Shown here: one piece after another, positions 11,900 to 61,073 of the stretch
Layout of the letters: every line of letters starts with the position of its first letter
Numbering within the stretch: the first letter of the stretch is position 1
Made by a program: the position numbers and the translations under genes
The notes under the pieces: generated by a model
What the model saw: the letters and a program-made list of their open reading frames with translations, nothing else
What the model was told of the DNA's origin: nothing
Databases searched by the model: none
Assembly: GCA_902386535.1 (NCBI GenBank)
Contig: CABMJK010000039.1
Coordinates: forward strand, 678 to 64,677
Length of the DNA: 64,000 nucleotides
Origin: Candidatus Burarchaeum australiense
GTDB lineage: Archaea > Micrarchaeota > Micrarchaeia > Burarchaeales > Burarchaeaceae
Reading direction: 5' to 3'

Positions 11900-12021
11900 A
11901 GCCCCAGACGAGAATTGAACTCGCTACCTACTGCTTTCTCGTTTCTTTTCCGCCGGCGCTTTTCTTTGGGAAAGAAAAGGGCCGCTACAAGGCAGTCGCT
12001 CTACCGATGAGCTACTGGGGC
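11900..12021 (-). tRNA. tRNA-Thr (anticodon UGU) with 50-nt intron at canonical 37/38 (intron 11936-11985)
   Basis: Hand-folded: GCCCCAG TA GCTC ATCGGTA GAGC G ACTGC CUUGUA|intron|A GCAGT AGGTA GCGAG TTCAATT CTCGT CTGGGGC T. The acceptor, anticodon and T stems all pair. Confidence 0.85.
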
Positions 12022-18912: not shown

Positions 18913-19671
18913 TCAAACGGTTGCTCTTGGGGGAGGGGTGCGATTCCCGGCGCCGGTTGCGCGGTTGCCCGGCGTTGGGCTGGCAGCGGCCCGGAATTGC
19001 TGAGACCGCTGAACGATCGCTCCCTGAGCAGCGCGAATATTTTTTGGCAGTTCATCTAAAATGAACTCTGAGCAAAAGGGCAGGGTTGCGCGTTCCAAAA
19101 CATGGCGGGTCTTGAACCCGACTTGAAGCACATCCAAGTGGTCCCACATCTTGTCAAGCACTTTGTCCTGCGCCGGCAAGGCAAGCACTTCGGTAATTTT
19201 GACGAATGCTCTTGCAACTGCATCGTCCACACATAATCCGATGGGTGCCTTGACCAGGTAATTCACGATGTCGGCCGCGGTGCTTGAATTCGCCATCGAA
19301 CCGAGCACACATACCAGCGTTTGCGCTATCGACTGGTCTAGCGGTGGTTCTGCAGTCAGTACCGCGCCCGCGCGCGGCATTGCGGCCTCCAATGCAGTTC
19401 GGATGGAAGGATCATCGCCGTGAAATGCTTGACAATCCCAAATCGCGTCTGCCGCGCCTTTACGCACGGAAGGAAGCGGATGTGTTTCCAGAATTTCAAC
19501 CAGGGGCAGCACGGCGCCCGGGCCGCCCTTGTACCCAAGCTCATCTACCGCCAAGGCGCAGAGTTCCTTCCAGTCTCCCGGAGAGTTGTCGCCGCGATTG
19601 ATTATTATTTCGATTAGTTCCGCCCGTGCCTTGTCATCCAGATATGGGGTGCTGTTTTTGACCATAATCAA
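18913..19671 (-). CDS. HEAT/PBS-lyase-like repeat protein (252 aa)
   Basis: GAVLPLVEILETHPLPSVRKGAADAIWD resembles HEAT-like repeats. The C-terminal tail is Pro/Ala-rich. Confidence 0.5.
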   Translation of the reverse strand: MIMVKNSTPYLDDKARAELIEIIINRGDNSPGDWKELCALAVDELGYKGGPGAVLPLVEILETHPLPSVRKGAADAIWDCQAFHGDDPSIRTALEAAMPRAGAVLTAEPPLDQSIAQTLVCVLGSMANSSTAADIVNYLVKAPIGLCVDDAVARAFVKITEVLALPAQDKVLDKMWDHLDVLQVGFKTRHVLERATLPFCSEFILDELPKNIRAAQGAIVQRSQQFRAAASPTPGNRATGAGNRTPPPRATV

Positions 19672-19700
19672 ACCTGGGGCATCCTGATGACTTTGACGAG

Positions 19701-20924
19701 CTACTGCACGGCGCGCACCGCAGGTGTGCGGGATTGCGCTTGCGCGGCAGGAACGGCCTGCACGCCAGACCGCTGACCAACCTCGTTTAAGCGGGCGTTG
19801 ACTGCCCTGAGCGCTTGGCGAACATAACTGAGCGCATAATCCAGGTCTTTGCGAGTATAACGCGTTCCGGGGTCACCGAAGGTAAGGTCGTATTTCTGGA
19901 GTCTTGCATTCTGCTTCTCCAGAAGCCGCAGGTACTGGGCAACGGCCAGGAGTTGTTTGCGTGAAAGGTCTTCGCAGTTTTTCGCAAGCTGTCCGAGGGC
20001 ATCAGCAACGCACTTGTCGACTATGGGATGACGCCGTGCCTTGAAAAGAGGAGCCAACGCGAACTCATCCCCTGCTTTTCCCAGCACGCGCGCCAGGGAG
20101 CCGGCAATGGAAACATCTTTCTCAATGCCCAGCGTTGCGCCCAGATAAAGCTGGTGGGAATTCAGCTTCGCTTTCACGGCAGGATCCGCCGAACCGGCGA
20201 GGGTTTCAAGAGCGCCAGCCATGGCAACGCGCACCGCGTGCGGGACGTCGGGATAGGTGGTGTTGTCCAACCTCAAAACCAGGTCCTCCACTGCGCGAGA
20301 GCCGCCGTTTTCCCCGAGCCAGTTCACTGCGAGCACGATGCCGGGCACCATGCCGGGATGATCGTAATCTAGCTGCTCAAGACAGGAGTTAAACCGGACT
20401 TCGAAATTGCTTATGCGGGTTTCAACCCCGACAATAGCGGCCTGACGCGCAGTTTCGGATAATGCCGGGAGCTCGGACAGACGCGCCTTTATGGCCGTTA
20501 ATTCTGGCAGGGATAGGACGCAATGCGAAGTTTCTGAAGCTTTGACTAGCTGGAGCAAGGCATTGGCGATGTGGTCGTCCAGCATTTGAGAGGGCGTTGC
20601 CTCGAGCAGGTAGGGCAGGGCGCGCTTGTCGGCCAGATTTCCAAAAATAGTCACGATGGCCATGCGAAGTTGCTCGTTTGCCGTTTCGTGGTCGTCGGTT
20701 TTCAGCAATAAGCCAAGGCGGGGTATCCTTTTGGATATTTCTAACCTCGCAACAGTCCTTACGGGAGGTAGTTTTGATGTTGAAAGTTTTTCGAGGCTTT
20801 GGGCTGCATTGCAGCGCGCCGCAGGATTTGGGCCGCTTTCCGTGATTCCTACGAGACGCTCAATCTTTTCTGCAAAATCCTGGGTATACGTTTCAGGGTT
20901 TGGGGGTTCCGCGTGTTGAGACAT
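19701..20924 (-). CDS. HEAT-like repeat protein (407 aa)
   Basis: Repeated helical units such as RALPYLLEATPSQ...ANALLQL and RAVEDLVLRLDNTTYPDVPHAVRVAMAGALETLAG. Confidence 0.5.
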   Translation of the reverse strand: MSQHAEPPNPETYTQDFAEKIERLVGITESGPNPAARCNAAQSLEKLSTSKLPPVRTVARLEISKRIPRLGLLLKTDDHETANEQLRMAIVTIFGNLADKRALPYLLEATPSQMLDDHIANALLQLVKASETSHCVLSLPELTAIKARLSELPALSETARQAAIVGVETRISNFEVRFNSCLEQLDYDHPGMVPGIVLAVNWLGENGGSRAVEDLVLRLDNTTYPDVPHAVRVAMAGALETLAGSADPAVKAKLNSHQLYLGATLGIEKDVSIAGSLARVLGKAGDEFALAPLFKARRHPIVDKCVADALGQLAKNCEDLSRKQLLAVAQYLRLLEKQNARLQKYDLTFGDPGTRYTRKDLDYALSYVRQALRAVNARLNEVGQRSGVQAVPAAQAQSRTPAVRAVQ

Positions 20925-35480: not shown

Positions 35481-36929
35481 ATGCCGCAGGCATTTGCGCC
35501 AAGAGGCGAAACAGCAGCCGCTCATCTTGAGCAGGCCAGGGCCATGTACGACCAGTACATTGGAATGAATCCCACTCTTGCGCGCATAGTAGTCGTGGAT
35601 GTTTTCGAGAACGGACAGCTGCAGGACAGGTTCCTGGGCTTCAAGCTCGGCAACCGGATTTACGATTTCAGGACAGACCAGGCAACGGGCCGCGAGCGCG
35701 GCTGGGTGACCGAGGCAGACCTCAATCCGGCCGGCGGCAGGCAGGTTTACGCGTGGTCGTTCGAGAAGGACCGGCGGCTCGAGGGCCTGGGCAGCGAATT
35801 TCTCAACGCAGACCTCAGGCAGATGGGCGGGCAGACGCTGGTGCAATACGCGATTCATGGAAGGCTCGGGCAGGCAGGCTCGACCAACGCCAACCTTGGA
35901 AGCGTGCCGGTCAGGCAGGAAGGGACCGGAACTGCGGCCAGGCACATGCCAACTTCCGGAGCGCCTAGCAGCGACAGGATGTTTACGCGCATGTCAGACC
36001 ACACGCTCGCCATTGGCGAGGCCTCCCACGCAGTCGTGCGGGGCGAACTGAAAATTCCGGAGTCCACGCTGAGGCTCGGCTCCGCGCAAGTGCAGGACGT
36101 GAAGGATTTACAGACCTTGTTGAACTCGTTGGGGATTAGTGACGCGTCCGGCCACAGGCTCGAGGTCACGGGCGTTTTCGACCAGCAGACGAAGGAGGCC
36201 GTGACTGCCTGGCAAAAATACATCAACGACGCATATCACCGGGAAGGCGAGGGAAAACTGCTTTTGGAGGACGGGGTTTTCGGGCAACACACGAGGCATT
36301 TTACCCGCGTGATAATGGGGCTCGATCGGGAGGAGGGCTATGGCTTCGGGGGCGGCCGCACGATCGCTCCGGAACCACGGGACGTGGAAGGCGTTGGGAG
36401 CAGGGGGCCTGGCGAAGTGGAGAAACTCGAAGAGGCGCCGGGGCAGGCCACGGCAGGCGACGAGCAACCTGCGCCTGAAACTTCCGCGCCCGGTGCGTCG
36501 GCACAGCAACCGGAAGAGCCGGTCCAGCAGCAGGCAAGGAAAGTGAGCTGGCCCATCATGGGCGCGGGCGGGCAACTTCCGATAGAACCGATTGAGAAAT
36601 TCAGGAGTGGACAGCTCCTGAGCCTGCCGGCGGTAGAGGGCACGAGCGTGATCGCGCCGGTTGACGGGACTGTGACCGACATTTCAATAGGCATTTTCAG
36701 CGGCTATGTCAGGATTAGAGGCGATGACTGTCGGGAATATTTCATAGGCCATCTGAGCCCGGTGAGCATAAGGACAGTCTCAGTCAACGGGCATGTTACA
36801 GGAGGCCGCACCGTTCTGGGCCAGGTGGGCGGGCCGGACATAGTGCACGGCTATGCGAGAATAGAATTCAAGATTACCAAAAATGGTGCGGCGCTGGATC
36901 CGAGCAGGGTTGTTGGCAGCGAATACTAG
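35481..36929 (+). CDS. Protein with peptidoglycan-binding (PG_binding_1-like) domain and C-terminal LytM/M23-like domain lacking the catalytic His residues
   Basis: VQDVKDLQTLLNSLGISDASGHRLEVTGVFDQQTKEAVTAWQKYIN matches the PG_binding_1 pattern. EGTSVIAPVDGTVTDI...GYVRIRGDD..YFIGHLS...GHVTGGRTVLGQVGG...YARIEFKITKNGAALDP matches the M23 fold pattern, but HxxxD and HLHFE are replaced. No obvious signal peptide. Confidence 0.65.
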   Translation: MPQAFAPRGETAAAHLEQARAMYDQYIGMNPTLARIVVVDVFENGQLQDRFLGFKLGNRIYDFRTDQATGRERGWVTEADLNPAGGRQVYAWSFEKDRRLEGLGSEFLNADLRQMGGQTLVQYAIHGRLGQAGSTNANLGSVPVRQEGTGTAARHMPTSGAPSSDRMFTRMSDHTLAIGEASHAVVRGELKIPESTLRLGSAQVQDVKDLQTLLNSLGISDASGHRLEVTGVFDQQTKEAVTAWQKYINDAYHREGEGKLLLEDGVFGQHTRHFTRVIMGLDREEGYGFGGGRTIAPEPRDVEGVGSRGPGEVEKLEEAPGQATAGDEQPAPETSAPGASAQQPEEPVQQQARKVSWPIMGAGGQLPIEPIEKFRSGQLLSLPAVEGTSVIAPVDGTVTDISIGIFSGYVRIRGDDCREYFIGHLSPVSIRTVSVNGHVTGGRTVLGQVGGPDIVHGYARIEFKITKNGAALDPSRVVGSEY

Positions 36930-42322: not shown

Positions 42323-43021
42323 TCAACCGCCCCCTATGACCCCTTTGCCCGTCAAATAAGCCATGTAGCTTTCGACATATGCTTTTGCCTGCTCGTCCGA
42401 AAACCTGTCTTTCAAATTGCCCCGCTTCTCTATGTCAATCACCACGGTGACATTATTCCGGGTAAGGGTGCCGAAGTGATAGTTGATGTAATCCGTTGCG
42501 TCTTGGATCGCAGAATCGCTCGCAGACGGAATCTCTTTTTTTAATTCATTTTTATCGAATTTTGTCCGATCGGTTTTGTAGAAGTACTGGGGCTCTCCGA
42601 AAATTTTGACGTCCATCTGCTCAGACGTTGAGGAGTAGTCGAACAGGCGGTTGATGGCCAATCCTGCTAGCAAATATCTGCTGCAGTTAACGCCCACGCA
42701 TTCGGTGACCTGGGTTTGGATGTGAAACGAGAAGGAGTCCGGATACTTGCCGGCCTCATAAACGTAAAATTGCTGCGAGTCTTCAGTCCAATTTGCACCG
42801 GGATTCGCGGTGGGTTTTTCGTCATAGGTCAGCTCGCTCTTTTCGCCAAACGGCACGTTGAGCTGCCGGAAGTTGTCCTCGGAAAAGAACCAGGCCTTCT
42901 TTTCTTCGGGGAGCGGCTTGTAACCCAGCGCCTGATTAAGGACGGGCTCGGTTAAACTGCAACAGCCGTAAAAGACCAGGCTAAGGAAGAGCGCGGCGAC
43001 TACCAGTTTCCGGGATTCCAT
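42323..43021 (-). CDS. Hypothetical lipoprotein (232 aa), lower-GC gene
   Basis: MESRKLVVAALFLSLVFYGC is a signal peptide plus lipobox-like Cys. The gene has AT-rich codon usage relative to its neighbours. Confidence 0.55.
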   Translation of the reverse strand: MESRKLVVAALFLSLVFYGCCSLTEPVLNQALGYKPLPEEKKAWFFSEDNFRQLNVPFGEKSELTYDEKPTANPGANWTEDSQQFYVYEAGKYPDSFSFHIQTQVTECVGVNCSRYLLAGLAINRLFDYSSTSEQMDVKIFGEPQYFYKTDRTKFDKNELKKEIPSASDSAIQDATDYINYHFGTLTRNNVTVVIDIEKRGNLKDRFSDEQAKAYVESYMAYLTGKGVIGGG

Positions 43022-43295: not shown

Positions 43296-43570
43296 AGTGC
43301 AATGGGATTGCCGAGTTCGATGCGTCCTTCCCCGTAAGATTATCCGCGCCTAGGCTCCACCCCGTTACCCCAAAGCATGGACGCAAATATTTAGGGTTGC
43401 TCCTTTCGGCCTGGCCCGGTTCACATAAGAGCCCATCTCTGGAGGCAGGGCTTCGACGCTTCGGCACGGGTCCCGCGGCAAAGGGCGAACCTTGCCCGGC
43501 CATTCGGTCCCGCCTAAGAGGATTTGCGGTGCAAGGTACCCCTAGCTCCCCGACCTATCCCACTGCGAAG
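43296..43570 (-). ncRNA. Signal recognition particle RNA (7S/SRP RNA)
   Basis: The minus strand contains GGGCCAGGCCGAAAGGAGCAACC, which resembles the conserved helix-8 motif (GNAR tetraloop plus AGCA). 5' GCAGTGGGAT pairs with 3' ATCCCATTGC. There is a 5' GGGGAGCTAGGGG Alu-like start and a TATA box about 25 nt upstream. The ends are approximate. Confidence 0.7.
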
Positions 43571-44636: not shown

Positions 44637-44723
44637 TCCTCCGGCGCGGAGCTATGGGGAAATATAGGTTCCGGGCAAAATATATAGTATATTTTAAAAA
44701 GCCGGAAAGCCAGAATTTGGTGC

Positions 44724-46694
44724 GTGTTAAAGCACGCAAAGATAACCCCCATAGGGAACCGGTTCTATCCTTGGCCTAACGGAGCGGTTGCCAGACCTCG
44801 CGACCCGGCAGACTTCGCCAACGCCGAGCCGAAGGCGGAAAAAAGGACAGGATGGTCGGAGGAGGCGTTGAAAAAACACGAGGCACGTGTGGCGCACCTA
44901 AGGGCACTGAGTGAAGACTACTGGGGAAAACAGGCGCACATTGAAGGCAGTGAAGAGTTACTCGGTAAGGAGGCGGCGAAAAAAAATCAAGAATTTCTTT
45001 TGGAGAGGTATTACAGGGTATGTTCAAGAAAGAAAAAAGGATGGCTGGAGGAAAAGGAAGACCTGGAGAAGAAGCTGTTGTGGGCATATGATCATTTACT
45101 ACGTGAAATTGCAAACCAAACTCAAGGTTTGCGACTTGAGAAATTCGGCAGCACCCTGGACGCGGACGATTTCTTTGTGTGGGGCCAACTGGGCGTGTTG
45201 AAGGCAATCGAAAAATATGTGCCTGAAAAAAAAGGGTATTTCGAGTTCTACCTGAGGACATGCATACGTAACGCGATTCGGGACGGAATCAAGGATGAGC
45301 AAGGCACCATACACATAGCAGAAGACACCGTAAGCGAACTGGGGCAACTTAAAAAAGCGATAGAAAAACTTACGCAACAGAATGAAGCGCGGGTGGCGCG
45401 CCTCGTAGAAGAAAGGAGCTTGGGTGAAAGACAGTTAAGTGATGCAGAACTGCGTTTAATCAGAAACTGCGGCAAGCCCACGGAAGCCGAACTTGCCGCT
45501 GAGATGGAAGTAACGGTGGAAACTATCAAACGGCTTTTCGAGATAGACCGCTTATTTTTCAATGCTTCCCTGGACGCGCCTGTGAACCGGCAATCGCAAG
45601 GCGAAGACGATGACGCACGGATGCAGTTCTGCGCCGGACCTGGGCTTAAACCGGATGAATACGCGATAATTAGCGCGGTGCTGGAAATCGTCAGGCAAGT
45701 CGTTGAAAAATACGTTTCGGCGAAAGGGGTCAGCGCGCAAACCAGAGAACTGATGCTTGCTAAAATTGACGGTCTTCTCCCGGATTTCATCTCGCTCGAA
45801 GAGGTTGCGGAAACCTTCGGTATGAATCCGAACTATGTGCGAAACACGTTCAGCCAATACCTGGCAGGACCTTTGGGCGATGCGCTGACTGCGCTCGAAA
45901 TCGACGCCGTGCCGATATTTGAAGTCAATCTCGACGTAGTGGAGCGCATGCGCGAAATCGGGAATTGCGCTGGAAAAGAAGCTACGAGTGAGACGCGGAG
46001 GCCGCCGGACTATTGGAAAGACCTGGAAAACAACCTAAACTATCTGCGAGATAATGCCGATGGCGTCTATGCCCCGGACAGCAGCTCAGTGGCTGCAAGG
46101 CCAGTCAAACATTCATTGGACTCGGGGTATTTTCCGGACCACACGTATTCAAGTCTCGCCGCACTTGCAGGGCTTAGATTGAGGACGGAGGAGCCGACGA
46201 TTCATGATGATTTTGACGTGTTTGCGCGGGCGCTCCTGCCACACGTGAAAGACGGAATTATGCCGCCTACGGCCCATTTCAAAGGAAATGGCCTTGAAGA
46301 CCTATACTATAGCATCTTGAACAACTGGGGCGGGAAGGAAGCGGTTATGCGGAAGTTGGCAGAGCGCGGCTTGATCCCCCATGTCGAAGATTGCATTGCG
46401 CATTTGTCGAACAAAGGCCGGCCGAACATGCGCAATGATTTCGGCCTTTTCACCGAGGCGCTGCTGCCGCACATTACGGAAGACGGACGAATCCCCTCGT
46501 ATACGTATTTCAAAAATAACGGAATCGCCACCATTTACAGGTACATTATGGACGTCTGGGGCGGACCTGAAGCAGTCCTGCAAAGAATGAATGGCCTGGG
46601 TATGCTTGGACCGACTAATGGAGAAACCGTGCAGCCGCCGGCCGCAGAGGAGAAGGAGCCGGAATACGCGCTTGTTGGTGCTGGAACCAGATAA
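44724..46694 (+). CDS. Sigma-70 family-like protein (regions 2, 3 and 4 recognisable) with C-terminal tandem repeats resembling homing-endonuclease-associated repeats
   Basis: [46 protein letters not shown] aligns with E. coli RpoD [69 protein letters not shown]...SLDAPV resembles region 3, and [21 protein letters not shown] resembles region 4.2. GC is visibly lower than in flanking genes. The GTG start is uncertain. Confidence 0.7.
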   Translation: [656 protein letters not shown]

Positions 46695-46713
46695 ACGGTT
46701 GCTCGGCTCATCA

Positions 46714-60088: not shown

Positions 60089-60667
60089 ATGCTCGAAGAA
60101 CTCGTCACGTCAAAGGTCAAGAGAAAGCTGCTGGTCCTCTTTCTCACCAATCCGGACAGGAAGTTCTACGTGCGGGAGATGGCGCGGAAGACGGGCGAGC
60201 AGACGAACGCAGTAAGGCGCGAGCTGGACAAGCTGGAGCGGCTCGGCCTGGTTGCGAAGGAGAGGACTGCGAACCTACTTTACTACCGCACGGACAGGCG
60301 CTGTCCCATCTACGAGGAGCTCAAGCACATAATAATGAAAACCGAGGGGATCGGAACTGTGCTGAAGCAAGGGCTGGAAGGCGCGGAAAAGGTGCGATTT
60401 GCATTCATCTACGGTTCGTTCGCGAGCGGTGAGGAGCGGGCCGGCAGCGACATTGACGTGATGGTTGTGGGAGGCATCTCGCCGGAGGAGCTGGGGCCGA
60501 AAATAAGGACCGTGGAGAGGCAAATAGGCCGGGAGATAAACCAGGTTGTATTTCCTGAAACCGAGTTCTTAAAAAGGAGGCGTGAGGGGTTTATAGCGAA
60601 TGTAATGAAAGGGAAGAAAATAATGCTGGTGGGCGACGAGGATGAACTTAAGCGATTTACTGGCTGA
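60089..60667 (+). CDS. wHTH plus minimal nucleotidyltransferase (MNT-type antitoxin-like) protein
   Basis: An N-terminal ArsR-like wHTH (FYVREMARKTGEQTNAVRRELDKLERLGLV) followed by the NTase motif YGSFASGEERAGSDIDVMVV. Confidence 0.75.
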   Translation: MLEELVTSKVKRKLLVLFLTNPDRKFYVREMARKTGEQTNAVRRELDKLERLGLVAKERTANLLYYRTDRRCPIYEELKHIIMKTEGIGTVLKQGLEGAEKVRFAFIYGSFASGEERAGSDIDVMVVGGISPEELGPKIRTVERQIGREINQVVFPETEFLKRRREGFIANVMKGKKIMLVGDEDELKRFTG

Positions 60668-61073
60668 GGACCGCGTGAAAAAAGTGCAGCCGGACAGGCT
60701 GCAGGCGCAGGAATGCCTGAAGGCCGCCGGGCGCGACGTGAGGGTCGCAAAGAAGATGCTGGCTGAAGATTTTGACTGGGCGTTTTCCGTTGCGTACAAT
60801 GCCATGCTGCAGTCCGCCAGGGCGCTGATGTTTGCGGACGGTTACGCGCCGGTTGGGGAAAACCACCACAAGATAGCAGTAGACTATGCAGACGTGAAGC
60901 TCGGCACAAAGTTCAAGGAAAAAGTCGAACTGTTTGATGATATGCGGAAAAAGCGCCACAAGGCAGTTTACGAGAAGGTCGGCGCCATCTCGGAATACGA
61001 GGCCAGGCACGCGATAGAAACTGCCGATGATTTCCTGCGGAAAGTAAGGGAGAAGCTAGGGGCTGAAAAATAA
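60642..61073 (+). CDS. HEPN domain protein (toxin-like partner of MNT)
   Basis: A helical protein with AFSVAYNAMLQSARALM and RKKRHKAVYE (an Rx4-6H-like motif). It overlaps the upstream NTase gene by 26 nt. Confidence 0.7.
   Translation: MNLSDLLAEDRVKKVQPDRLQAQECLKAAGRDVRVAKKMLAEDFDWAFSVAYNAMLQSARALMFADGYAPVGENHHKIAVDYADVKLGTKFKEKVELFDDMRKKRHKAVYEKVGAISEYEARHAIETADDFLRKVREKLGAEK

Follow-up and report, generated by a model that had tools for sequence, protein, structure and literature searches.

Sigma-70 factors of groups 2 and 3 (RpoS, SigB/F/G, FliA/WhiG) consist of region 1.2 followed by the sigma-2, sigma-3 and sigma-4 domains, without region 1.1, in a core of about 350 aa. Phage sigma factors (phrog_351) evolve fast, carry extra domains and use the core polymerase of their bacterial host, and ECF41/42-type sigmas join a sigma core to a C-terminal extension and function without an anti-sigma factor. 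In DPANN archaea, transcription is performed by the archaeal RNA polymerase with TBP, TFB and TFE (PMC8204110). Sigma-70 genes without anti-sigma partners have been reported in this group, with an emphasis on Woesearchaeota (fam00359; Castelle et al., 2021, PMC8204110), and divergent rpoS-like genes have been described in DPANN viruses and a prophage (PMC12647753). These genes have been noted before but never explained.

The window, by which we mean the whole stretch of 64,000 nt that was analysed, lies on an archaeal contig of 'Ca. Burarchaeum australiense' (Micrarchaeota, DPANN). The archaeal genome that the original prediction had assumed around the ORF is borne out by an archaeal SRP RNA, by genes for FtsZ, FEN1, an archaeal-type AdoMet synthetase, Kae1 and HMG-CoA reductase, and by neighbouring proteins that are 100% identical to 'Ca. 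Burarchaeum australiense' records. No bacterial-type core RNA polymerase gene occurs within the 64-kb window, and a bacterial core polymerase is not expected in a DPANN archaeon. The organism is a tiny archaeon of groundwater habitats with a streamlined genome of 1.2 Mb, and its window also holds a PG_binding_1/Peptidase_M23-like gene at 35481-36929. The features considered here are the following.

43300-43565: Archaea_SRP RNA, an archaeal marker on the contig.
44637-46713, no strand: single-gene insert of 2.08 kb, an accessory segment.
44676-44700, plus strand: AT-rich TATA/BRE-like element, predicted promoter.
44724-46694, plus strand: sigma-70-family protein gene, 656 aa, GTG start, GenBank VVC03913.1.
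44724-45041, plus strand: N-terminal region, aa 1-106, basic (pI 9.6).
45042-45320, plus strand: sigma-2 domain, aa 107-199, matched by the Pfam region 2 profile at 30.6 bits, with key positions degenerate.
45321-45617, plus strand: sigma-3 domain, aa 200-298, from alignment, with AlphaFold2 (AF2) pLDDT >90.
45618-45926, plus strand: sigma-4 domain, aa 299-401, a helix-turn-helix (HTH) plus tail, from a 34-sequence alignment.
45984-46181, plus strand: module 'R0', aa 421-486, homologous to the N-terminus of a 308-aa gene found in the same slot in Ca. Burarchaeum sp.
46188-46382, plus strand: C-terminal repeat R1, aa 489-553, from self-alignment and a repeat HMM.
46416-46613, plus strand: C-terminal repeat R2, aa 565-630, from self-alignment and a repeat HMM.

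The 656-aa ORF has exactly the coordinates and strand assigned to it in the original prediction, which had recognized sigma-70 regions 2, 3 and 4.2 by eye; a 34-sequence alignment puts these regions in the same places. Profile searches yield significant sigma-70 matches, with Pfam Sigma70_r2 (PF04542) at 30.6 bits against a cut-off of 24 (aa 141-193) and NCBIfam TIGR02937 at 46.0 bits against 42.9, whereas Sigma70_r3 (PF04539; aa 251-294) remains just below its cut-off (24.1 versus 25.3 bits) and the region 4 profile (PF04545) gives no match in the protein. The top-scoring profile of all is phrog_351, 'RNA polymerase sigma factor' (56 bits, E 4.7e-15). A phmmer search of the PDB retrieves SigA (E 2.8e-7) in an alignment that takes in region 2 as well as regions 3-4, and the AF2 model, which has a pLDDT of ~90 across aa 80-400, matches a sigma factor in every one of its top Foldseek alignments to the PDB (E ~6e-7, 300-370 aligned columns) and phage sigmas among the BFVD structures. 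Three comparisons extend over regions 3-4: the Foldseek matches, the 34-sequence alignment and the alignment to the PDB. Judged by these profiles and by the predicted structure, 44724-46694 codes for a sigma-70-family protein that has diverged very far.

The core of this protein, comprising region 1.2, sigma-2, sigma-3 and sigma-4 (aa ~45-401), continues into a C-terminal domain that is all-helical. Residues ~45-101 are helical in the AF2 model and align with sigma region 1.2 and the adjoining spacer, both in the 34-sequence alignment and in the PDB alignment (query 32-219). The series of domains and the length of the core are those of group 2/3 factors, from which the protein differs in having a C-terminal extension of ~255 aa and an insertion of ~29 aa in sigma-3 (aa ~222-250) that other sigma factors lack. 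It also falls far under the cut-off of every subgroup, and its host is an archaeon in which the bacterial core enzyme is not expected. The NCBIfam subgroup models all score alike, at 30-38 bits. The name RpoS on VVC03913.1 is an over-annotation (TIGR02394, 32.6 bits against a cut-off of 378.7; NF004207, 27.8 against 394), and the SigBFG model is likewise far from its cut-off (37.7 bits against 234). MzaA, the sigma factor of the MZA anti-phage system, was considered and set aside, the PADLOC match being too weak (14.5 bits, E 0.002) and NCBIfam NF041931 scoring 18.3 bits against a cut-off of 800. The ECF41/42-type factors lack sigma-3 and carry SnoaL-like or TPR extensions, and no sequence relation between them and the 656-aa protein was seen.

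Although the fold appears to be kept, the alignments indicate that the determinants of canonical sigma function have been lost. Of 74 sigma consensus positions, 34 are kept. In region 2.2, QEGN is replaced by VWGQ (the consensus LIQEGN reads FFVWGQ), and the beta-prime clamp-helix residues, equivalent to E. coli Q406, E407 and N409, are unconserved; a sigma-like protein of a sister genome (P0065) retains SEG in this region. The -10 residues have fared similarly: in region 2.3, ATWW has become LRTC, with T and C in place of W433 and W434, and the Y430 equivalent is retained as Y176. Elsewhere in sigma-2, RTIRxP is replaced by GTIHIA. In the region 4.2 recognition helix, RERVRQ (RERxRQ) is replaced by PNYVRN, leaving R588 as the only one retained among the equivalents of the -35 contacts R584, E585, R588 and Q589. 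The charge of both domains has also shifted, to a pI of 5.37 for sigma-2 (median of homologues, 9.43) and of 4.25 for the sigma-4 HTH, the lowest of 28 (median, 8.6). The acidity of sigma-2 and sigma-4, together with the loss of DNA-contact arginines, argues against the canonical surfaces being used to bind DNA. The earlier suggestion of a DNA-binding regulator is consequently weakened, though it stays plausible. Because residues needed by a working sigma factor have been lost, the 656-aa protein is probably a repurposed accessory protein.

The two C-terminal repeats, of ~65 aa each, are recognized by a self-alignment score of 141, compared with 26 +/- 4 for shuffled sequences. Similarity of R0 to R1 and R2 is not significant, and R0 may represent a degenerate third repeat. 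In being helical, in their length of ~55-65 aa and in a W/F...G-x-P...GG...G-L pattern, these repeats resemble the homing-endonuclease-associated repeats of PF18780, which sit on selfish or mobile genes between conserved genes, a further likeness to the 656-aa gene. The protein differs from PF18780 proteins in having neither a direct Pfam match nor a nuclease domain. Direct assignment of the repeats to PF18780 is not supported: the Pfam profile gives no match at E<=10 in the 656-aa protein and none in the related 308-aa and 226-aa proteins described below, and a profile built from marine PF18780 proteins scores 2.7 bits on the 656-aa protein. R2 has a weak in-register match (E 0.006) to a marine protein containing PF18780. 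The relationship between the repeats and PF18780 would be a transitive one, in which R0 leads to the 308-aa protein (6e-5), this to a marine protein (44% identity over 48 aa), and the latter to PF18780 (33.9 bits); the marine PF18780 protein adjoins a serine recombinase. The repeat HMM picks up no further copy, either elsewhere in the window or among 17 related loci, and a PDB sequence search with the C-terminal domain, which has a pLDDT of 37 when modelled by AF2 from the single sequence, returned nothing.

Comparison with related genomes reveals that the ORF is an accessory gene, inserted relative to its syntenic relatives. The insert is bounded by the stop codon of ftsZ (44636) and by that of a gene for a 90-aa membrane protein (46714), which adjoins an M50 protease gene; these flanking core genes are convergent. 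The slot is empty in two relatives (L053 and L054) whose FtsZ is 91.6% identical to that of the window and in which a 5-nt gap separates the flanking genes. It is empty also in L001, L007 and L009, where M50, with or without the 90-aa gene, abuts FtsZ. In L051 and L052, the same slot is filled on the same strand by a different gene of 308 aa, the two copies of which are 100% identical. This 308-aa gene has in common with the 656-aa protein only a sigma-4-like HTH plus tail and a repeat module, and the sigma-4 tail is shared in addition with a 226-aa protein of L001. Modules shared among the three proteins are connected at BLASTP 6e-5, hhalign 2.3e-4 and BLASTP 2e-9. R0 matches the 308-aa protein at 6e-5 and the 226-aa protein at 0.006 (BLASTP), and sigma-4 plus tail matches the 308/226-aa proteins at a BLASTP value of 1e-4 and, by hhalign, at E 2.3e-4, although the homology is weak (E 1e-4 to 6e-5; hhalign probability 44%) and the domain order permuted.

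Further sigma-like genes of relatives occupy other positions and are mutually very divergent. Among them are P0065, annotated 'sigma factor, partial', which adjoins MAT, and a 246-aa gene in L051 with a profile E of 4.6e-24. The 656-aa ORF and these sigma-like and slot genes all have low GC3 (0.57, 0.48, 0.48 and 0.55, as against 0.65-0.83 in their neighbours). Acquisition as a one-off bacterial import does not fit the distribution observed: within the order, relatives have several other sigma-derived genes, very divergent and variably placed, and the slot gene of a sister genome shares the sigma-4-like HTH and the repeat module.

The foreign character of the segment itself is well founded. 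The low GC noted previously extends over the ORF (GC 0.519; GC3 0.57 versus 0.75-0.83 in flanking genes), and 44637-46713 ranks first among 249 two-kb windows for tetranucleotide deviation, so that in composition no other segment of the window is as foreign as the insert. No bacterial or viral donor can be named, since the best matches in all collections searched are generic sigma factors at ~25-35% identity. A word-indexed search and an exhaustive phmmer search of 1.84 billion representatives found nothing closer than generic sigmas at E ~1e-5, the top three matches being low-complexity or repeat artefacts. Searches of GTDB genomes, IMG/VR and JGI metagenome contigs revealed no closer homologue, and neither did tblastn against phages and plasmids, in which identity to any phage sequence reached at most 26%; an alignment-based scan of IMG/VR recovered phage sigmas only, at 22-32% identity. 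The absence of a close homologue is a soft negative, as searches of representatives can hide sequences and hid VVC03913.1 itself. The gene nevertheless resembles the DPANN sigmas of PMC8204110 in being a bacterial-type sigma-70 gene on a DPANN contig with no anti-sigma, while differing from them in its occurrence in Micrarchaeota (Burarchaeales), its repeat domain and its lack of close relatives.

The insert is bordered by neither an integrase gene nor viral genes, no nuclease domain is found in the 656-aa protein or beside the insert, and searches for flanking direct or inverted repeats that might serve as att sites gave short matches at chance level. Given these results, we infer a mobile-element origin solely from the behaviour of the gene. 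By their description, the genes reported in DPANN viruses and a prophage are similar in being very divergent, in bearing the label rpoS and in their link to DPANN mobile elements (PMC12647753), whereas the 656-aa gene has no viral genes around it and finds only phage sigmas, at ~25% identity, in IMG/VR.

The AT-rich spacer noted previously upstream of the ORF is present at 44676-44700 and has the appearance of a host-type signal, not of a mark of foreignness. The sequence TATTTTAAAA is situated 25-34 nt 5' of the GTG start, and boxes of the TATTTAAA or TTTAAATA type precede the starts of many host genes in the window by 23-45 nt. In L051, the 308-aa gene has TTTATAAAG ~27 nt before its ATG. 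The best reading of this element is an archaeal TATA promoter of the host type, and its distance from the start codon predicts that the mRNA of the 656-aa ORF is leaderless or near-leaderless.

We consider the 656-aa gene to be a fast-evolving, mobile-element-type, sigma-derived regulator or adaptor and not a canonical sigma factor, a reading to which we assign a probability of about 0.5. According to this proposal, the gene would come from a rapidly evolving pool of sigma-derived HTH and repeat genes, virus-borne or free-standing and selfish, that turns over in Burarchaeales, and the archaeal machinery would transcribe it into a leaderless mRNA. With its clamp-helix, -10 melting and -35 residues replaced, the product would not act as a canonical sigma. 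It would most likely serve as a regulator or adaptor that uses the basic N-terminus, the retained sigma-4-like HTH and the repeats to contact DNA or a partner protein, with targets belonging to the host or to a mobile element.

A less probable account, though the best placed of the alternatives, is that the gene is a decaying relic, a transferred sigma gene that is functionless in an archaeal cell and is drifting. Replacement of the canonical determinants, the lack of a close homologue and atypical codon usage would all be expected of such a gene, and the empty slots in close relatives indicate that it is dispensable. Against decay stands the integrity of the frame in a streamlined 1.2-Mb genome: 656 open codons have a chance of ~6e-15 at the composition of the ORF, and the other five frames of 44724-46694 contain 14-36 stops each. 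The AF2 core is confidently folded, the host-type TATA box is well placed, the repeat domain has been duplicated and is still in frame, and several relatives keep related genes.

It is also conceivable, but improbable, that the protein works as a sigma-like factor for the archaeal RNA polymerase, its sigma-2 domain having been re-adapted to the archaeal clamp coiled-coil, and that it directs or modulates initiation at particular promoters. We know of no precedent for a sigma-like factor on an archaeal RNA polymerase. The full sigma-2/3/4 architecture is modelled with high confidence, a change of partner would be expected to alter the interface residues, and the lineage has multiple sigma-like paralogues, which suggests that they are used, but the -10 melting tryptophans and -35 contacts are lost, the domains are acidic, and close relatives dispense with the gene. 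Sigma factors of DPANN archaea occur without anti-sigma factors (PMC8204110), and the fused C-terminal domain could assume a regulatory role. Equally doubtful, in our estimation, is the broader proposition that Burarchaeales maintain a lineage-specific, diversifying sigma-70-derived family that docks on the archaeal RNA polymerase, at the clamp coiled-coil or flap, and steers or blocks transcription. If it were true, a eukaryote-like polymerase would be subject to an added sigma-like layer, serving promoter control or virus-host conflict, and the 656-aa protein would be the most complete member of the family.

An assembly or binning artefact, in which a bacterial or phage fragment bearing an ordinary bacterial sigma was misjoined to the archaeal contig, is very unlikely. 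The insert has the most deviant composition in the window, and the source MAG has a redundancy of 5.4% (PMC8561730), but the flanks are collinear with those of other Micrarchaeota and a misjoin would need two precise joins within short intergenic spacers. Moreover, an independent NCBI MAG and a Logan assembly each have a distant relative of the gene in this slot, the promoter is of the host type, no similar bacterial or phage sequence was found, and other Burarchaeum contigs bear sigma-like genes beside archaeal genes. Chimerism is thus unlikely in view of the synteny conserved on either flank and of the filled slot in independent assemblies. The least probable reading is the effector proposed previously, which would be secreted or injected and would bind a bacterial partner's RNA polymerase. 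The general idea of DPANN archaea as episymbionts and the PG_binding_1/Peptidase_M23-like gene might speak for it, but the protein has neither a signal peptide nor a membrane segment (hydropathy peaks at 1.25), the beta-prime clamp-helix residues are not conserved, and the known hosts of Micrarchaeota are archaea.

For DPANN sigma-like genes in general, this locus adds that they can be accessory, polymorphic single-gene insertions and not core genes, and that a single order can harbour several mutually very divergent copies, some of which retain only the sigma-4-like HTH and a repeat module. Accessory insertion, divergent copies and lost determinants together lead away from the notion of bacterial transcription in an archaeon and toward sigma domains being put to new use by mobile elements or regulators. 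A pair of empty and filled sites and concrete constructs are now at hand for experiments. The case also flags both the RpoS mis-annotation and the database artefact by which the protein is concealed from representative-based searches.

An open reading frame at 44724-46694 on the + strand, with a GTG start and a product of 656 aa, is present exactly as the original prediction had described it. The other five frames across this interval carry 14-36 stops, and the chance of an open frame of such length is ~6e-15 at local composition. Membership of the encoded protein in the sigma-70 family, previously proposed from alignment by eye, is solid: Pfam Sigma70_r2 matches aa 141-193 at 30.6 bits (cut-off 24), NCBIfam TIGR02937 scores 46.0 bits (cut-off 42.9), PHROG 351 ('RNA polymerase sigma factor') matches at E 4.7e-15, and Sigma70_r3 reaches 24.1 bits over aa 251-294 (cut-off 25.3). 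A phmmer search of PDB sequences finds cyanobacterial SigA (2.8e-7), with region 2 and regions 3-4 in order. The AlphaFold2 model, built from a 34-sequence alignment, has a pLDDT of ~90 over aa 80-400; its leading Foldseek matches in the PDB are all sigma factors in initiation complexes (E ~6e-7, 300-370 columns), and its leading BFVD matches are phage sigma factors. The protein is organized as follows.

Before sigma-2: region 1.2-like helix, the first element
aa 107-199: sigma-2
aa 200-298: sigma-3, carrying an insertion of ~29 aa
aa 299-401: sigma-4
After sigma-4: C-terminal extension of ~255 residues

By gene content the window is archaeal, and the surroundings of the gene include the following features.

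43300-43565, - strand: Archaea_SRP RNA (Rfam RF01857, 100.6 bits), directly upstream of ftsZ
Directly upstream of the 656-aa frame: FtsZ gene
Nearby: genes for M50 protease, an MBF1-like protein, FEN1, archaeal-type AdoMet synthetase, HMG-CoA reductase and Kae1

The M50 protease shares 100% identity with a protein from a 64.8-kb contig of Candidatus Burarchaeum australiense, and exact look-up identifies GenBank records VVC03911/15/21/25 as the FtsZ, 90-aa protein, FEN1 and HMGR of the window. The host is MAG LFW-281_7, a member of the Micrarchaeota (DPANN) from Australian groundwater, and sigma is nowhere mentioned in its published description (PMC8561730). The 656-aa protein is recorded as VVC03913.1 under the name 'RNA polymerase sigma factor RpoS'. 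This annotation is wrong: the RpoS model gives 32.6 bits against a cut-off of 378.7, and none of the NCBIfam subgroup models comes near its cut-off.

The low GC content noted earlier is borne out by a GC of 0.519 and a GC3 of 0.57, against 0.75-0.83 for GC3 in neighbouring genes, and in the tetranucleotide comparison segment 44637-46713 is the most deviant among 249 two-kb windows. Two adjacent HEAT-repeat-like genes at 18913-20924 (-), with GC3 of 0.58-0.60, are almost as atypical. The AT-rich spacer upstream of the gene, also described earlier, contains TATTTTAAAA 25-34 nt before the GTG start. Because many host genes in the window have similar boxes (TATTTAAA- or TTTAAATA-type) 23-45 nt upstream of their starts, the spacer is best read as a putative archaeal TATA/BRE promoter that would yield an mRNA with little or no leader. 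At the left edge of the insert, directly 3′ of the ftsZ stop, lies a perfect short hairpin (CTCCG-GCG-CGGAG, 44639-44651, +), which may be a transcript end signal of ftsZ.

Comparison with neighbouring genes in related genomes, as had been suggested, identifies the 656-aa gene as an insertion relative to syntenic relatives. Among Micrarchaeota with M50 proteases 35-56% identical to that of the window, the M50 protease and ftsZ genes are convergent and abutting (gaps of 0-60 nt); in B9_G16 a small membrane-protein gene separates them. The slot was also compared in closer relatives, with FtsZ 91.6% identical to that of the window.

Window: filled by the 656-aa gene
Contigs L051 (Ca. Burarchaeum sp. 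GCA_030646255.1) and L052 (Logan assembly): filled by a 308-aa gene on the same strand
Contigs L053 and L054 (ENA): empty, with a 5-nt gap

The FtsZ proteins of L051 and L053 are 95.5% identical and both are farther from that of the window, so gain or loss at the slot is recent. The 656-aa gene, inserted singly into this polymorphic slot, is accessory; the flanks of segment 44637-46713 contain no direct repeats and neither an integrase nor viral genes. A 232-aa frame with no family match (42323-43021, -; GC3 0.65) separates the ACT-domain gene from the SRP RNA. The ACT-to-ftsZ interval of L051 spans only 711 nt, too short for this 699-nt gene plus the SRP RNA, and the frame therefore seems to be a second insertion, adjacent to the sigma slot, that is specific to the window. 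In B9_G16 a 455-aa gene with no family match (contig L001, 6806-8173, +) separates the MBF1-like and M50 protease genes, which abut in the window; here the conserved neighbourhood has one more variable slot.

The original prediction had the gene probably acquired from a bacterium or virus. Its composition is indeed foreign, but a donor sequence was found in no collection searched. Word-indexed search returned nothing closer than generic sigma factors (~25-35% identity), and the same held for GTDB genomes, IMG/VR, JGI metagenome contigs, and phage and plasmid collections. An exhaustive phmmer search of 1.84 billion representatives likewise gave nothing closer, with 37 matches at E<=1e-3 and 0 at E<=1e-10; the top three matches were repeat artefacts. 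Because representatives can hide members, the lack of a closer sequence is a soft negative. VVC03913.1 is itself such a case: the representative of its 90%-identity cluster is a 56-aa metalloprotease-like fragment (P0068) unrelated to it, and it consequently cannot be returned by representative-based homology searches. Other real homologues could be hidden likewise.

The protein keeps 34 of 74 well-conserved alignment positions. The losses fall on functional determinants, labelled here by E. coli sigma-70 numbering. The clamp-helix-binding motif of region 2.2 changes from LIQEGN to FFVWGQ, the W433/W434 pair of region 2.3 to T and C (the Y430 equivalent is kept), RTIRxP to GTIHIA, and RERVRQ of region 4.2 to PNYVRN. 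Sigma-2 is unusually acidic (pI 5.37 vs a median of 9.43), and so is the region 4.2 HTH, whose pI of 4.25 ranks lowest among 28; the first 106 residues of the protein are basic.

Within the C-terminal extension, two repeats (aa 489-553 and aa 565-630) show a clear relationship, with a score of 141 vs 26 +/- 4 for shuffles, and a third, degenerate copy at aa 421-486 is possible, its similarity not being significant. Neither the window nor 17 related loci contain further copies. A 592-aa marine protein scores 33.9 bits against Pfam PF18780 ('homing endonuclease associated repeat'), and its first repeat shares 44% identity over 48 aa with the corresponding module of the 308-aa protein. The 656-aa protein has no PF18780 match, and its direct match to the marine repeat is weak (E 0.006 pairwise, 2.7 bits with a profile); assignment of its repeats to PF18780 is a lead. 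On its metagenome contig (L057, OQVM01003054, 3067-7776), the marine protein carries such repeats on either side of a central domain with no family assignment, and its gene has a small HTH gene and the gene of a large serine recombinase as neighbours.

The 308-aa slot protein of L051 has no Pfam match; its N-terminal part matches aa 421-543 of the 656-aa protein (BLASTP 6e-5), and it has a 226-aa homologue in B9_G16 (2e-9). Taken jointly with this homologue, the 308-aa protein matches sigma-4 plus tail (aa 299-401) over its last ~100 residues, with an hhalign E of 2.3e-4 and a probability of 44%; a pairwise BLASTP gives 1e-4. The 226-aa protein matches Pfam Sigma70_r4 weakly (E 1e-3). Its gene lies between ftsY and a conserved 372-aa gene, a position occupied by a 12-nt gap in the window. 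Module order is permuted among the three proteins; the homology of the 656-aa protein to this slot-gene family is weak, but position and matches in two distinct segments back it.

The sister MAG (GCA_030646255.1) encodes two further sigma-like genes. P0065 (contig L002, 1-642, -), a partial gene that covers regions 2-3 and adjoins the AdoMet synthetase gene, is named 'sigma factor, partial' by NCBI; its product is 30% identical to the 656-aa protein over region 2 and keeps the canonical SEG and WWIRQ motifs, and the protein collection contains no close relative of it. A 246-aa gene upstream of the IF5A gene (L051, 806-1546, +) has regions 2 and 4 (Pfam r2 23.7 bits, r4 22 bits; profile E 4.6e-24). 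GC3 of all these sigma-like genes is below that of their neighbours. The two have diverged strongly, both from one another and from the 656-aa gene; Burarchaeales genomes therefore carry several highly divergent genes of sigma origin, whose positions vary.

The 656-aa gene is a genuine, intact, archaeal-encoded and compositionally foreign member of the sigma-70 family, with degenerate sigma determinants, an added repeat domain and related modules in neighbouring genomes. We infer that it would be one of a pool of mobile-element-type genes with sigma-derived HTH and repeat modules that turn over fast, that an archaeal promoter would drive its expression, and that its product may act as a regulator or adaptor rather than an initiation factor. 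The intact frame, the folded core of the model, the putative promoter and the retained duplication in the C-terminal domain speak against a drifting relic. A sigma factor re-adapted to the archaeal polymerase would have no precedent. An assembly chimera is unlikely, given synteny on both sides of the insert and independent occupation of the slot in other assemblies. The anti-bacterial effector engaging bacterial RNA polymerase, offered earlier as an option, finds no support, the protein having neither signal peptide nor membrane segment. Read as a sigma-derived regulator or adaptor, the gene fits reports of DPANN sigma-70 genes without anti-sigma factors (PMC8204110) and of divergent rpoS-like genes in DPANN viruses and a prophage (PMC12647753). 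Sigma genes in DPANN are thus already known; what is new is the evidence that such a gene is accessory and polymorphic, together with its family of reduced relatives, its lost canonical determinants and its fusion to repeats.

Elsewhere in the window, Rfam calls a tRNA spanning 122 nt at 11900-12021 (-), absent from the ARAGORN output, that is probably an intron-containing archaeal tRNA. A 482-aa protein at 35481-36929 (+), with PG_binding_1 at 33.6 bits and a sub-threshold Peptidase_M23 at 26 bits, is predicted to be bacterial-type and murein hydrolase-like in this archaeon. At 60089-61073 (+), inside a second low-GC stretch (59-61 kb), a nucleotidyltransferase gene (Polbeta/NTP_transf_2) overlaps a HEPN-domain gene, a putative toxin-antitoxin-like pair.
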